From sequence record PZ445437.1: DNA of 64,000 nt. One strand, 5' to 3'. A program made the position numbers and the translations under genes. The first letter of the stretch is position 1. Every line of letters begins with the position of its first letter. The notes beneath the pieces were generated by a model. The model did not search any database. It saw only the letters and a program-made list of their open reading frames with translations, and was not told where the DNA came from. Positions 18,034-43,701 of the stretch are shown here, in pieces. Source of the DNA: a phage.

Positions 18034-18504
18034 TTAATCATGTGTCCACACCCCATCGGTATTTGACCAAAGTCGCTGATTATCTGATCCTCGCCACAGC
18101 TTTTTAGTCGGAAGATTTTTCTCATACTTCCCATCAATAATAACATCAACATATTTAAGCATTTCTAGTTGTTTAATATCTTCAAACTTATATCCTGTCC
18201 ACAACCAAATGCTTTTATTGGGATAAAGATTTTTAATAGTTTGAACCACAGAGTGAATCACGTCTCTGTTATCAGGATAAAGAGGGTCACCTCCGGTTAT
18301 AGTCAATCCTTCTATATAATCATTATTCAAACATTCAATTAATTGTTCTAGTGTTTCACCAGTGAATGGAACACCATTTCTAGCATTCCATGTTGATTTA
18401 TTATAACACCCTTCGCATTTATGCAAACAACCTGTAACGAAAAGAACTGTCCTGCATCCAGGACCATTAACAAAGCAGCACGGGTATATTCTGTCATAAT
18501 TCAT
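18034..18504 (-). CDS. nrdG: Anaerobic ribonucleotide reductase activating protein (radical SAM)
   Basis: 156 aa (T4 NrdG length); CxxxCxxC cluster motif. Confidence 0.9.
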   Translation of the reverse strand: MNYDRIYPCCFVNGPGCRTVLFVTGCLHKCEGCYNKSTWNARNGVPFTGETLEQLIECLNNDYIEGLTITGGDPLYPDNRDVIHSVVQTIKNLYPNKSIWLWTGYKFEDIKQLEMLKYVDVIIDGKYEKNLPTKKLWRGSDNQRLWSNTDGVWTHD

Positions 18505-19333
18505 TTATATATTTCCAATTATAGCCTTCAACACTTTTACGTTCGCCATTTAAACATTTTAAAATATTTCCTTTGCTAGAAATATTAAAATATTTTGCTG
18601 CGTCTGGTATATAATTAAATGTTTTTAAAAGAACACCATCTTTATATGCGCCAAATAAATTAAGAGTATATTTTTCTCGAAGACGCTGATGTTTCCTTTT
18701 CATAACCTCAGGATTTGCATACGCCAACTTCAATGAATTTCTGTGTTTTTCTTTTACTTCAGGTTTTTGCATTGCTAACTTAGTTAGCCTGGAAATTTTA
18801 TTTCTAACTTCGTCAGTTTTCATTGCATTTGACAAATTTAATAAAGTTTTATTTCTAACTTCAGGTTTTTGCATTGCTAGCTTAGTTAGTTCTCTATGTC
18901 TTTTTCTAAAATCGTCATCCTTCCATATATTTTTCGATAATTTTGACATAGAGCGGTGAAATAATTCCTTTTCACTGGAATACAATTTAAAAATTTCATC
19001 CAATTCATCCGCATTAAATCTATCGGTATTCGAGTTTATCATTCTATGAAAGGCATAACACATTTTACTATTGCTTGTTTTAGCTAAATAGTAATGAGCT
19101 AACGCATGGTCATAATATGACAAATTAACAATATTCCATTTATCTGTTTTATATTCAGGAAATATAGATTTGGGAAGCACGTGATGTGCTTCCGTTTTTC
19201 CTTTTATTTTAGGATTATTATAATTTTTTGTTATCAAATCAACATATGACAATAGTAAATCATTATTTTCTTCAAATATTAAAGATAATTTATCATTCAC
19301 AAAATCGCAAGGATAAAATCTATCATAATTCAT
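18494..19333 (-). mobile_element. Freestanding HNH homing endonuclease gene (279 aa, Mob-like)
   Basis: HNH motif EAHHVLPKS..N..YDHALAHYY; tandem NUMOD-like repeats (TKLAMQKPEV x2); ATG overlaps nrdD stop; first 13 codons resemble nrdG. Confidence 0.8.
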
Positions 19334-33288: not shown

Positions 33289-33750
33289 TCATTGAGTTTT
33301 AATTACTGCTTTAGAAGCCTTTCCTGGTAAACGACGACTGTTAATAATTGCCATCCTACATTGAAGTGACGGGTCTTTGAACTTCTCGTTAGGTTTACAA
33401 ACTGTAAATCCAAGCCAAAGATTTCCATCTGTGATTTCTAAACGTCCAGGACGATATTCAACCCCATCAATAAAATCCTCGTCAATGTCAGGACGCGGAG
33501 GCATACTCAGGAATTCATTAACTTCTAAAACATGGTCTTTTATTTTATGGAATAATTCAAAAACATATGTCTCATCAATCTCCCGCTGAATTGCGCGATC
33601 AAGAAGATGCTGAGAATATTTTAGATGAAACGATGAGACCCCTGCTGCTTTTGATGCCTCACGAATCTCATTGTTAATTTGACGAAACTCCGACTCAAAG
33701 TGACGACGAAGCTTATTTCGACGAATAAAAACTTCTGTATTGATAGTCAT
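33289..33750 (-). CDS. regB: Endoribonuclease RegB
   Basis: 153 aa (T4 RegB length), position downstream of early promoter. Confidence 0.9.
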   Translation of the reverse strand: MTINTEVFIRRNKLRRHFESEFRQINNEIREASKAAGVSSFHLKYSQHLLDRAIQREIDETYVFELFHKIKDHVLEVNEFLSMPPRPDIDEDFIDGVEYRPGRLEITDGNLWLGFTVCKPNEKFKDPSLQCRMAIINSRRLPGKASKAVIKTQ

Positions 33751-33809: not shown

Positions 33810-34130
33810 TTATTCTTTAAATCTAATCAATTTATTCATAGACTTTGAAACTTCTGCACGAACCTCATGTAGATTTTTGAGCTGTTCAAGACGCTGCGTA
33901 TAGTAAGCAATTTCATCTTCTTCGAGACAGTCCTGCGAATCTTCTTTAAGATAACGTGCATAGTCCTGAAAAGCGTTACGGATTACTTCCTGGAAGTCAT
34001 CAAGACTTTGAATTTTCTTAGGAGCAGCAGATACACGACAAGGGGCAGTATAATACTCATAACCAAACCCTGCGCTTAATTGAGCCATTAGTATTTTTCC
34101 TCTGGTTGGAACACTGCACGACAAGCCCAC
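33810..34130 (-). CDS. Hypothetical protein (106 aa)
   Basis: ORF. Confidence 0.4.
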
Positions 34131-34390
34131 ATACTGGCTTCTTTGAGTTTCGTTTTAGCAATAGTTAACTGATCGAGGCTTTCGGCGTAATTCTTCGCGA
34201 GTTCATCATCTTCACAGCTATCAAATGCTTCCCAAAATTCATCGTATAAAGCATCAAAGATAAGTCCTAAACGAACTTCAGCGTCTTTAATAGCATTTAC
34301 TTTACCGATTTTTTCGTCGGTATGTGGCTTATAACCTTTAATATCTTCAATCATATTTGACTTCCTCACCAGTACATAAATCGTATTCAA
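34088..34390 (-). CDS. Hypothetical protein (100 aa)
   Basis: ORF, acidic. Confidence 0.4.
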
Positions 34391-34568
34391 CTAAACGAAT
34401 AGGTTCATGAATGCCATATCCCTGAACAGAAATTTCTGTAGTAGGATAAATTCCATTAATATCACCCATGTTCCATGCTTCGTTAAATTGCTGTTCGCCT
34501 GAATTACTAAACCATTCGGCGAAAGCATTTAGCACATCTTCAGAACCTTCAATAATTATCTTTGCCAT
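34347..34568 (-). CDS. Hypothetical protein (73 aa)
   Basis: ORF. Confidence 0.4.
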   Translation of the reverse strand: MAKIIIEGSEDVLNAFAEWFSNSGEQQFNEAWNMGDINGIYPTTEISVQGYGIHEPIRLVEYDLCTGEEVKYD

Positions 34569-34930
34569 TACAAACTCTCGGTAAAGGTACGAGCGATAAC
34601 GTCGCGCTGCTGTTCCGGAGTCAGAGAGTTAAAGCGAACTGCATAACCGGATACACGGATGGTCAGCTGCGGATATTTTTCCGGATGCTTAACTGCATCT
34701 TCCAGAGTTTCGCGACGCAGAACGTTAACGTTCAGGTGTTGACCACCTTCAATTTTAACTGTAGGCTGTTGCTCAATTTCAATTTCACGGGCATGCAAAC
34801 CGTAGAAAATTTCTGGGTCTACAAAAGAGTCCTCTTTAAAGGTTTTGGAGACAATAATTCGTGCTTGAATACCATCTTCAAAATAAATAGTACCTTTATG
34901 TGTGCCTTCAAGAATTTGATATGCTTTCAT
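34568..34930 (-). CDS. Autonomous glycyl radical cofactor (GrcA/YfiD-like)
   Basis: C-terminal ...[31 protein letters not shown] carries the glycyl-radical RVSGY motif; C-terminal half looks nearly identical to E. coli GrcA as I recall it. Confidence 0.7.
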
Positions 34931-34937
34931 ATAAACC

Positions 34938-35318
34938 TCAATTAGAAAATAAATTTATCCAAGATTGTTCTTTAATTAAAAATGGCTCAGAATCATATGC
35001 CATTAAACTTTGCGTAATTAATCCTTTAAAAGGTCCATCAATAAATTCCATGGTAAAATATGGAATTTTATTCATTAGCCGTGCATTAGGAGCAGTGCAC
35101 AAAACTCTGCATCCTTTGAATACGCCTTTTTGTAATTTGTATTGCTTAGGATAAAATTCACTTAAAATGTTATTTTTTGCCAAAATTTCAAAATGATTCA
35201 CCAATTTATTTTTAATAGTTTTTGGTGAAAAATAAAGATACTCGAAAAGTTGCGCATCTGTCATCATTGCATTCCGATTACGAAAAACTGCGGACGAGTA
35301 ATACCACCAATGCAACAT
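34938..35318 (-). CDS. Hypothetical protein (126 aa)
   Basis: ORF. Confidence 0.4.
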
Positions 35319-42108: not shown

Positions 42109-42184
42109 TGGTCGAGGCAGTAGGGATCGAACCTACGACCTAGGACTTAGAAGGTCCTTGCTCTTCCTTCTGAGCTATGCCCCG
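42109..42184 (-). tRNA. tRNA-Arg (anticodon UCU)
   Basis: Hand-folded cloverleaf, 76 nt, CCA encoded, anticodon loop CUUCUAA. Confidence 0.85.
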
Positions 42185-42188
42185 TAAT

Positions 42189-42264
42189 TGGGGTGACCGA
42201 TGGGAGTCGAACCCATGACTACGAGAATCACAATCTCGAGTTCTACCAACTGAACTACGGCCAC
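42189..42264 (-). tRNA. tRNA-His (anticodon GUG)
   Basis: Hand-folded cloverleaf, 76 nt, CCA encoded, anticodon loop UUGUGAU. Confidence 0.8.
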
Positions 42265-42378
42265 ATTAATACCTACTCCAACAATCAAGATGTCTTCACA
42301 CGAAATTAAGAGAAGAGTGATCAGTTCAACCCCTATAATCGCGTCAAGTAGATATTAATGTGACAGTTGTCACAAATT

Positions 42379-42453
42379 TGGCGGACGTGATAGGATTCGA
42401 ACCTATAACCAATCGCTTAACAGGCGATCGCTCTGCCATTGAGCTACACATCC
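42379..42453 (-). tRNA. tRNA-Asn (anticodon GUU)
   Basis: Hand-folded cloverleaf, 75 nt, CCA encoded, anticodon loop CUGUUAA. Confidence 0.8.
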
Positions 42454-42457
42454 AAAT

Positions 42458-42544
42458 TGGTGGGGAGTGATGGAGTCGAACCACCCGAGTCGCAATGACA
42501 ATGGATTTACAGTCCACACCGCTACCTCTACGGGATAACTCCCC
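42458..42544 (-). tRNA. tRNA-Tyr (anticodon GUA), class II
   Basis: 87 nt with long variable arm, anticodon loop CUGUAAA, CCA encoded. Confidence 0.8.
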
Positions 42545-42553
42545 AAATTAATT

Positions 42554-42628
42554 TGGTGGCCCTGGGTGGAATTGAACCACCATCTGGCGATTATGAGTCG
42601 CTTGCTTGAACCTTCCAGCTACAGGGCC
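42554..42628 (-). tRNA. tRNA with CAU anticodon (Ile2/lysidine type or Met)
   Basis: 75 nt cloverleaf, anticodon loop CUCAUAA; T4 tRNA-Ile occupies this position after Thr. Confidence 0.8.
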
Positions 42629-42629
42629 T

Positions 42630-42705
42630 TGGTGCTGATTGACGGAATCGAACCGCCGACCTTCTCATTACAAGTGAGTTGCTCTACCTACTGAGCTAAA
42701 TCAGC
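42630..42705 (-). tRNA. tRNA-Thr (anticodon UGU)
   Basis: 76 nt cloverleaf, anticodon loop CUUGUAA. Confidence 0.85.
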
Positions 42706-42710
42706 AAAAC

Positions 42711-42800
42711 TGGCGGAGGCGATAGGATTTGAACCTATGAGTCGCCGGAGCGACTGCCGGTTTTCAAGACCGGTGCATTAAACCACTCTGCCACGCCTCC
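42711..42800 (-). tRNA. tRNA-Ser (anticodon UGA), class II
   Basis: 90 nt with long variable arm, anticodon loop CUUGAAA. Confidence 0.85.
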
Positions 42801-42806
42801 AAATAT

Positions 42807-43457
42807 TTATATATTGTTAATTTGATTTAGAATTCTTTTTGCTTGAGTATGACTTACGCCAATATGCTTAGCATATTTAGATAATTCACCACGCTTAGAA
42901 AAATCATATAATTTAGAAATTTCTATTCTTCTTTTTCTTTCATCCACAGAAACTTTTGCTTCGTTTGCTTTTGCTATTTTACGTTTAGCTTCTTGAGAAT
43001 GAGTTTTACCAGCAAAGCCATTCTTCATTAATCCATTTGAAGACCATCCTTTTAATTTTCCGTTAGAATGTGCCTTTTTAACACCCAATGAAATTAATTC
43101 GCGTTGCTGGTCTGTCATAGGATAATTATTTATATGATCCCATCCACCTTCACCGCCAAGTTTTAAATTATACACATCTGGTCTATTTAAAAACTCTTCT
43201 GTAACAATATTTTTCTCGGCTTCAAGCATAGATTCTTTATCATCAAAATACTCTAATATTTCTTTAGAAAAATTTTCTATACCATACTTATCTTGGGCTC
43301 TTTTTAATAATTTACCAGAACCCATATATCCATCATCTAAATTTTCGGTAGAATGCACACCAATATAAATTTTATTATTAATTTTATTTGTTATTTTATA
43401 AAGATAAAAATGCATATCAGTCCCTAATAAAGAACTGAGCGTCTCACGACGAGTCAT
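42807..43457 (-). mobile_element. segB: GIY-YIG homing endonuclease SegB-like, inside tRNA cluster
   Basis: FYLYKITNKINNKIYIGVH...DDGYMGSG GIY-YIG motif; located between tRNA-Gly and tRNA-Ser as segB is in T4; probable true start at internal Met (43415). Confidence 0.8.
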
Positions 43458-43461
43458 AAAT

Positions 43462-43535
<74 letters not shown>

Positions 43536-43540
43536 AAATT

Positions 43541-43627
43541 TGGTGCGAGAAGTGGGACTCGAACCCACAAGGAAATCATTCCGCAGCATTTTAAGTGCTG
43601 TGCCTTTACCAATTTGACCATTCTCGC
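43541..43627 (-). tRNA. tRNA-Leu (anticodon UAA), class II
   Basis: 87 nt, anticodon loop CUUAAAA, long variable arm. Confidence 0.85.
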
Positions 43628-43628
43628 G

Positions 43629-43701
43629 CTGGGAATAAAGGACTCGAACCTTTGCATCCTGGAATCAAAATCCAGTGCCTTACCAACTTGGCTAATTCCC
43701 A
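43629..43701 (-). tRNA. tRNA-Gln (anticodon UUG)
   Basis: 73 nt, U1-A72 pair, anticodon loop UUUUGAU, CCA not encoded; 1 nt from tRNA-Leu. Confidence 0.85.

Follow-up and report, generated by a model that had tools for sequence, protein, structure and literature searches.

Phage gene vs.6, a diverged homologue of grcA, contains a tract identical to the Escherichia coli gene

How a virulent coliphage comes to carry a gene that matches its host letter for letter over nearly half of its length, and what such a gene would do for the phage, are the questions raised by vs.6 in a 64,000-nucleotide (64-kb) stretch of phage DNA (sequence record PZ445437.1; hereafter the window, to which coordinates refer). 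A first-pass annotation had reported here, near regB, an open reading frame (ORF) of 120 codons with the glycyl-radical motif RVSGY and a C-terminal half nearly identical to E. coli GrcA. The frame, its translation and its neighbourhood were confirmed, on the minus strand. By its sequence, vs.6 is a phage autonomous glycyl-radical cofactor of the GrcA/YfiD type and the orthologue of T4 vs.6/Y06I. The gene and its biochemical role are already known, so that neither phage biology nor the enzymology of glycyl radicals gains anything from vs.6; for T4 Y06I the function is reported, as later literature cites it, to have been demonstrated biochemically in 2001. What is new is confined to a stretch of 172 bases, an exact copy of E. 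coli grcA inside an old, diverged phage gene. We consider it probable that two things hold together: the protein serves as a spare part for pyruvate formate-lyase (PFL), and host DNA has overwritten the radical-domain segment of an old phage grcA.

The vs.6 protein and GrcA of E. coli K-12 were identical at 73 of 100 positions in a BLASTP alignment, and residues 61-120 of vs.6 equalled residues 68-127 of GrcA at all 60 positions. The resemblance was thus stronger than had been claimed, and it extended to the DNA, where gene nucleotides 179-350 matched K-12 grcA without a single difference (Table 1). Nucleotide alignment detected no similarity of the first 178 nt to E. coli grcA. At the other end, all four codons of the short 3' tail differed from the host gene, whereas one codon among 57 did so in the tract (Fisher p = 1e-5), and the boundary between tail and tract was placed differently among phages. 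Nucleotides 179-363 of vs.6 were found with 97.8% identity (E 4e-83) in all 5426 complete E. coli genomes. The guanine-plus-cytosine (GC) content of the tract was 0.497, and that of the 5' half, at 0.350, did not differ from the window mean; the GC profile reached its local maximum of 0.513 exactly at the tract, while the GC content of E. coli grcA was uniform along its length. The rest of the window gave no chromosomal match to the same E. coli genomes. The only other megablast similarity to E. coli genomes in the window was in a cluster of 10 tRNA genes, whose Asn-Tyr part was 83-90% identical to tRNA arrays on about 255 E. coli plasmids; these plasmids are likely phage-plasmids.

Across Enterobacterales and Pasteurellaceae the protein sequence of the GrcA C-terminal half hardly varies, so protein identity alone is weak evidence of recent acquisition. 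Orthologues of other hosts that encode the E. coli peptide, or almost the same one, were however only 83-92% identical to E. coli DNA over the C-terminal 186 nt. Because hosts with the same peptide differ at 8-17% of positions, the perfect 172-nt match indicates recent shared ancestry of the tract DNA. The direction was from host to phage, since the composition of the tract is that of the host, E. coli grcA is itself uniform in composition, and the host sequences diverge with host kinship. The earlier suggestion of a recent host acquisition therefore stood for the tract and failed for the gene as a whole, whose 5' half is old and diverged. Assembly contamination was ruled out: the tract lies in frame and flanked by phage DNA in hundreds of independent genomes, and it is already present in the T4 record X04567 of the 1980s.

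The 5' half has a long phage history. When the N-terminal halves alone were compared by hhalign, they aligned collinearly as far as the junction, at 30% identity and with a probability of 92.8% (E 3.9e-7, compared to E 0.43 for a reversed control), and intermediate phage sequences bridged the phage and host forms. The 5' half was conserved in Tequatrovirus, Mosigvirus, Jiaodavirus, Karamvirus and Slopekvirus and was under purifying selection between genera, with the proportions of nonsynonymous (pN) and synonymous (pS) differences being 0.05 and 0.33-0.36, respectively. Searches with tblastn found homologues in 1588 phage records, comprising T-even genera, RB49-like and RB43-like phages, Aeromonas and Vibrio phages, jumbo phages of Yersinia and Klebsiella, and T5-like Demerecviridae; the hosts were all facultative anaerobes (Enterobacterales, Aeromonas and Vibrio). 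On these alignments vs.6 is a full-length, long-diverged grcA homologue, not a host fragment fused to an unrelated peptide.

Some GrcA-like sequences had another form. In the T5-like phages AKFV33 (L008, 1501..1869) and Stitch (L012, 501..869), a 122-aa GrcA-like gene adjoins tRNA genes; its N-terminal half (MKAYQNLKSGVINLVH...) looks different, its tract is 72-75% identical to enterobacterial grcA, and it is mis-annotated as an acetyltransferase, a 2-ketobutyrate formate-lyase or a ribonucleotide reductase subunit. Among IMG/VR contigs (UViG_2706794630_000006, our L121, and L162-L172), some carried a host-type full-length GrcA (91% DNA identity to Yersinia grcA) and others the 3' end of a full-length pflB. 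Such sequences appear to be pieces of bacterial DNA or the flanks of prophages, not phage genes.

The tract has a separate and younger history than its flanks, as seen when some 17 phages and 85 host alleles were compared. Between Tequatrovirus and Mosigvirus, pS was 0.31-0.36 in the 5' half, whereas in the tract it was 0-0.05 for two Mosigvirus-like contigs and 0.19 for EP32a; the tails were 77-92% identical. In a sliding comparison the tract was the local identity maximum (0.99). The pattern was reversed within Mosigvirus, where EP32a and L097 had pS of 0.028 in the 5' half and 0.16 in the tract, with identical tails. In Jiaodavirus, phages KP179 and 15882-3-4 were 97.8, 94.2 and 100% identical in the 5' half, tract and tail, respectively. 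The phages also reproduce different host alleles. The window tract equals the K-12-type allele (CGC at nt 219), the identity running as far as nt 350; the T4 tract equals the SK1144-type allele of E. coli, with CGT at this codon, at 178 of 178 positions and is identical through nt 356, so that its 3' end-point differs. CGC/CGT at nt 219 is a natural E. coli polymorphism. In Klebsiella phage 15882-3-4 the tract was 95.9% identical to a Klebsiella grcA compared to 88% to E. coli; the first 130 nt reached 97.7%, with an exact run of 77, and four allele-specific synonymous variants were held in common. A neighbour-joining tree of the tract grouped Escherichia with Tequatrovirus and Mosigvirus (86% bootstrap) and the K. 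pneumoniae complex with Jiaodavirus (64%), and phage monophyly appeared in none of 300 bootstraps. The tract thus groups with a host allele while its flanks follow the phage phylogeny, the pattern of intragenic recombination between host and phage.

In the reading that we favour, an old full-length phage grcA homologue would have had nt 179-350 overwritten through homologous recombination (gene conversion) with host grcA. This overwriting would be recent in the Tequatrovirus/Mosigvirus lineage, with an Escherichia donor, and independent in Jiaodavirus, with a Klebsiella donor; probably more than one conversion took place within these lineages. At least two independent host-to-phage events are likely. 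It is also conceivable, though we hold it doubtful, that vs.6 is a standing target of gene conversion, and that T-even phages repeatedly re-copy the radical segment of their current host's grcA under selection for fit to the local PFL and its activase PflA. The selective reason would be that the repair protein has to suit the PFL and PflA of the host at hand. In its support, two host-type residues follow the host: the peptide reads TLEDAVKHP in E. coli and its phages, and TLLDAVEHP in Klebsiella phages, Klebsiella, Salmonella and Enterobacter. The same split separates RB43-like phages from Slopekvirus, even though their DNA identity to any sampled host has decayed to 83-87%.

Several points weigh against repeated conversion from the host. 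The conversion statistics rest on a short tract and a small sample (172 nt, about 43 synonymous sites), the bootstrap support for the Klebsiella grouping is moderate only, and the best Klebsiella-type donor is assembly GCA_021910665.1. The E. coli tract persists in tequatroviruses that were isolated on Salmonella or Yersinia, which rules out a close tracking of the isolation host, and E. coli phages of the Krischvirus, RB43-like and T5-like groups have tracts 72-83% identical to E. coli. Conversion would on both grounds be occasional and not routine in each infection. Across phage records, identity to the E. coli tract fell into two distinct groups, being at least 95% in 640, 90-95% in 5 and below 90% in 859. 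No near-identical donor of the Slopekvirus, RB43-like and Karamvirus tracts was present among the 85 host alleles (best 83-87%), and these lineages bear neither for nor against recent conversion. The sharing of the tract between Tequatrovirus and Mosigvirus could partly reflect recombination between phages rather than separate host events. Finally, the route by which host fragments would enter the phage genome is one that we infer, T4 being a phage that degrades host DNA and uses hydroxymethylcytosine.

The gene lies in a closely packed early cluster in the order vs.8-vs.7-vs.6-vs.5-vs.4-vs.3-regB, all on the minus strand, according to the RB14 annotation and the ORFs of the window; vs.3, vs.4 and vs.5 thus separate it from regB. 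It starts with ATG, its Shine-Dalgarno sequence overlaps the stop codon of vs.7, and its own stop codon overlaps the start of vs.5 (TAATG). The surrounding 3.5 kb was 97-99% identical to many Tequatrovirus (T4-like) genomes, in which the gene is labelled vs.6 (RB14) or, in many RefSeq phages, "autonomous glycyl radical cofactor GrcA". A scan for promoters and terminators near vs.6 gave 14 sites compared to 12.8 expected from shuffled sequence, which is no excess. For T4 vs.6 (UniProt P13316), an early RNA is recorded and the protein was detected in infected cells (PMC9697503, supplement).

Table 1. Positions of vs.6, its parts and other features in the window
Feature	Position	Strand	Basis or remark
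vs.6 coding sequence, 120 aa	34568..34930	minus	ORF, RB14 annotation, Pfam/NCBIfam/PDB matches
Phage-specific 5' half, gene nt 1-178, residues 1-59	34753..34930	minus	Diverged homologue of GrcA N-terminal half
Host-identical tract, gene nt 179-350, codons 60-117, structured radical domain	34581..34752	minus	172/172 nt equal to E. coli K-12 grcA
3' tail, last 4 codons and stop, 13 nt	34568..34580	minus	4 differences from E. coli, all synonymous
Codon of predicted radical glycine Gly95 (RVSGY)	34646..34648	minus	Equals GrcA Gly102 and PFL Gly734, by 6OWR and PFL 697-759 alignments
vs.6 Shine-Dalgarno sequence, GAGG	34936..34939	minus	5 nt upstream of start; overlaps vs.7 stop
Stop codon of vs.7, TGA	34938..34940	minus	
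Predicted beta unit, vs.6 residues 1-50	34781..34930	minus	AlphaFold
vs.4	34088..34390	minus	Name from RB14
regB	33289..33750	minus	
NrdD, 605 aa	19330..21147	minus	NRDD model match
279-aa ORF between nrdG and nrdD	18494..19333	minus	Weak NUMOD/I-HmuI-like matches
NrdG	18034..18504	minus	
tRNA cluster, 10 genes	42109..43701	minus	
Asn-Tyr part of tRNA cluster	42393..42549	minus	83-90% identical to plasmid tRNA arrays

Two side observations concern the cluster and the protein. An ORF that is named vs.4 in RB14 and lies two genes downstream of vs.6 matched the Pfam Acb2/Tad1 hairpin domain (E 1.4e-19), which suggests a nucleotide sponge of the anti-CBASS/anti-Thoeris type in the same early gene cluster. 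An identical vs.6 protein was recorded on 187 contigs; full-length copies in the protein cluster carry E. coli or Salmonella enterica labels on contigs of about 165-169 kb, and one member (P0132) is a 60-aa partial copy on a 410-bp contig of an Enterococcus faecalis assembly. The copies with bacterial labels are probably phage genomes or contamination within bacterial assemblies.

The assignment to the GrcA/YfiD family (TIGR04365/IPR011140) was borne out by profile and structure searches. The protein matched the Pfam Gly_radical model PF01228 (E 2.5e-18), the NCBIfam GrcA model TIGR04365 over residues 20-120 (E 1.2e-45) and the YfiD/GrcA structure 6OWR (E 9e-42). The last 63 or so residues aligned with PFL residues 697-759 (E 5e-26) at 79% identity to PflB; the motif occupies residues 92-96. 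Foldseek with the model of vs.6 gave significant matches only to 6OWR and PFL (2PFL). The score against TIGR04365 was 154.9 bits, under the 170-bit equivalog cut-off, which speaks against the assignment; the shortfall arises because the N-terminal half is diverged and shorter. The protein stands alone: its 120 residues are bounded by vs.7 and vs.5, and the ten-stranded barrel and catalytic cysteines that precede the radical domain in a full-length glycyl radical enzyme are absent. PHROGs v4 gives the family (phrog_1209, E 5.7e-63) the label "unknown function", and many GenBank phage records call the protein hypothetical, pyruvate formate-lyase or similar. These labels call for caution in annotation, as vs.6 falls below the NCBIfam cut-off and is of "unknown function" in PHROGs despite biochemistry reported in 2001.

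Among its relatives, E. coli GrcA is likewise a small standalone protein, identical in the radical domain; its N-terminal half is homologous to and collinear with that of vs.6, but only about 30% identical, and in vs.6 this half is 7 residues shorter. The host gene sits between ung and eamB, whereas vs.6 is part of the phage early cluster. The C-terminal radical domain of PflB (697-759; 2PFL, 1H16) shares fold and motif with vs.6, with a root-mean-square deviation of 1.2 Å over 43 aligned model columns, and is the very piece of PFL that the spare part replaces. Unlike PFL, vs.6 is without catalytic barrel and active-site cysteines, and its tract is identical to grcA and not to pflB. The short GrcA2 and GrcA3 proteins (NCBIfam NF008341 and NF038360; 78-80 aa) matched the radical-domain half of vs.6 (E 4e-27 and 6e-31) but are without the N-terminal half that vs.6 retains, and vs.6 scored well under their cut-offs. 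The radical site of PFL is Gly734, YfiD residues 61-127 reproduce the fold of PFL 693-759, and YfiD residues 1-60, disordered by nuclear magnetic resonance (NMR), promote binding to cleaved PFL and radical installation (PMC8683613). The host-identical tract falls inside the structured radical domain.

The closest relative of known biochemistry is T4 Vs.6/Y06I (P13316), which occupies the same locus, is identical at 119 of 120 residues (residue 54 is P in T4 and Q here) and likewise joins a phage 5' half to an E. coli-identical tract. YfiD and Y06I are described as spare parts of about 14 kDa that receive a radical from the PFL-activating enzyme (PFL-AE) and restore oxygen-cleaved PFL, and are presented there as the only two validated examples (PMC8683613, citing Wagner et al. 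2001). From the near-identity to T4 Y06I we infer that the window protein would restore PFL as well. The 60 C-terminal residues shared with GrcA, the RVSGY glycine and the homology of the N-terminal half to the PFL-binding half all point to this role. Oxygen would cleave host PFL at Gly734, Vs.6 would dock on the cleaved enzyme, and the host activase PflA would install a glycyl radical on Gly95, so restoring the conversion of pyruvate to acetyl-CoA and formate. The shut-off of host expression by T-even phages would leave the cell unable to renew PFL or its own GrcA, and an early phage copy would maintain the supply of fermentative ATP, acetyl-CoA and formate under fluctuating oxygen, in microaerobic, gut-like conditions. 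Against this role it counts that the searchable literature yielded no in vivo phenotype for a vs.6 mutant.

The diverged N-terminal half could instead have shifted the choice of partner, so that Vs.6 titrates PflA or occupies PFL and thereby redirects fermentation as a modulator or decoy, which we regard as improbable. This half governs binding to cleaved PFL in YfiD (PMC8683613) and is precisely the diverged part, where, besides its low identity and smaller length, the conserved FWLLD stretch of the hosts is replaced by TIYFED. Moreover, AlphaFold predicted residues 1-50 to be a folded four-stranded beta unit with predicted local distance difference test (pLDDT) values of 82-89, in contrast to the disordered half of YfiD. 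The whole model was of modest quality, however (pLDDT 69.9; predicted template modelling score, pTM, 0.43), and the Foldseek matches of the N-terminal unit were KOW-like and non-significant (E about 0.5). Against such a role, Y06I is reported to reconstitute cleaved PFL as YfiD does (PMC8683613, citing earlier work).

The first-pass annotation had instead linked the gene to the glycyl-radical enzyme NrdD and its activase NrdG. Both were indeed found in the window, 13-16 kb from vs.6, and NrdD, too, is cleaved by oxygen at its glycyl radical. In the jumbo Yersinia phage fHe-Yen9-04 (L010, 495..857), a grcA-like gene lies two genes downstream of nrdD, and in Aeromonas phage Ah1 the match coincided with annotations of a hypothetical protein and of nrdG. 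The link was nevertheless left unsupported by the proteins themselves. The vs.6 domain is that of GrcA and PflB, while NrdD (ending ...RRTCGYLGNPNERGF...) has RTCGY and an unrelated tail beyond the motif, and the NRDD model matched the separate 605-aa ORF and not vs.6. In addition, NrdD has its own activase in NrdG, vs.6 in T-even phages is not adjacent to nrdD or nrdG (at least 13 kb away), and the biochemistry cited for Y06I was reported with PFL and PFL-AE (PMC8683613). A role as spare part for NrdD is accordingly very improbable. Between nrdG and nrdD, and overlapping both, lies a 279-aa ORF with weak NUMOD/I-HmuI-like matches (E 2e-4 to 6e-3); by these, the anaerobic ribonucleotide reductase module may hold a free-standing insertion that resembles a homing endonuclease.

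As to origin, the perfect tract with its host-like GC and the collinearity of vs.6 with GrcA over the full length might suggest that host grcA was captured not long ago as a unit and is a young passenger. A young capture would be host-like throughout and is contradicted by the mosaic structure: the first 178 nt have no DNA similarity, about 30% protein identity and phage-typical GC (0.35), each synonymous position of the final four codons is changed, and the diverged 5' half and the gene order are common to five T-even genera, with homologues in T5-like, Aeromonas and jumbo phages. We give whole-gene capture very little credence. Selection on protein, codon usage or mRNA structure as the sole cause of the identical DNA, to which the near-invariance of the GrcA C-terminal half would lend itself, is scarcely credible, as 8-17% of tract positions differ from E. 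coli in hosts whose protein is the same or nearly so and whose codon bias is similar, phages of other genera that infect E. coli reach only 72-83% identity, and the phage alleles mirror the natural polymorphism at nt 219.

The favoured reading, overwriting of a segment of an old phage gene by host DNA, has a counterpart in psbA of T4-like cyanophages, likewise a metabolic gene of T4-type phages with exchange of intragenic segments between host and phage. Mosaicism of this photosystem gene between host and phage was reportedly described by Zeidner in 2005 and Sullivan in 2006. Carriage of psbA by T4-type cyanophages sustains host energy metabolism after shut-off. Unlike psbA, vs.6 belongs to a different pathway and to different hosts, and it has a single, sharply bounded, letter-perfect tract of 172 nt in a virulent coliphage that degrades host DNA. 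No earlier description of the host-identical tract or of vs.6 gene conversion was found in the searchable literature, and a prior mention of the DNA-level identity elsewhere is possible.

According to reviews of T4-related genomes, there are few clues to how lateral transfer into such phages occurs (PMC2993671). The value of vs.6 lies in a clean evolutionary picture: a bounded host-identical tract, host alleles that differ from phage to phage, and a Klebsiella-type counterpart in Klebsiella phages. It offers a small, PCR-sized natural marker with which to measure homologous recombination from host to phage, and a way to ask whether an auxiliary metabolic gene of a phage must match the host enzyme. 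If vs.6 were indeed a standing target of conversion, homologous exchange between the chromosome of a host and a phage that destroys the host's DNA would still be going on, which would be a rare case and one open to direct measurement.

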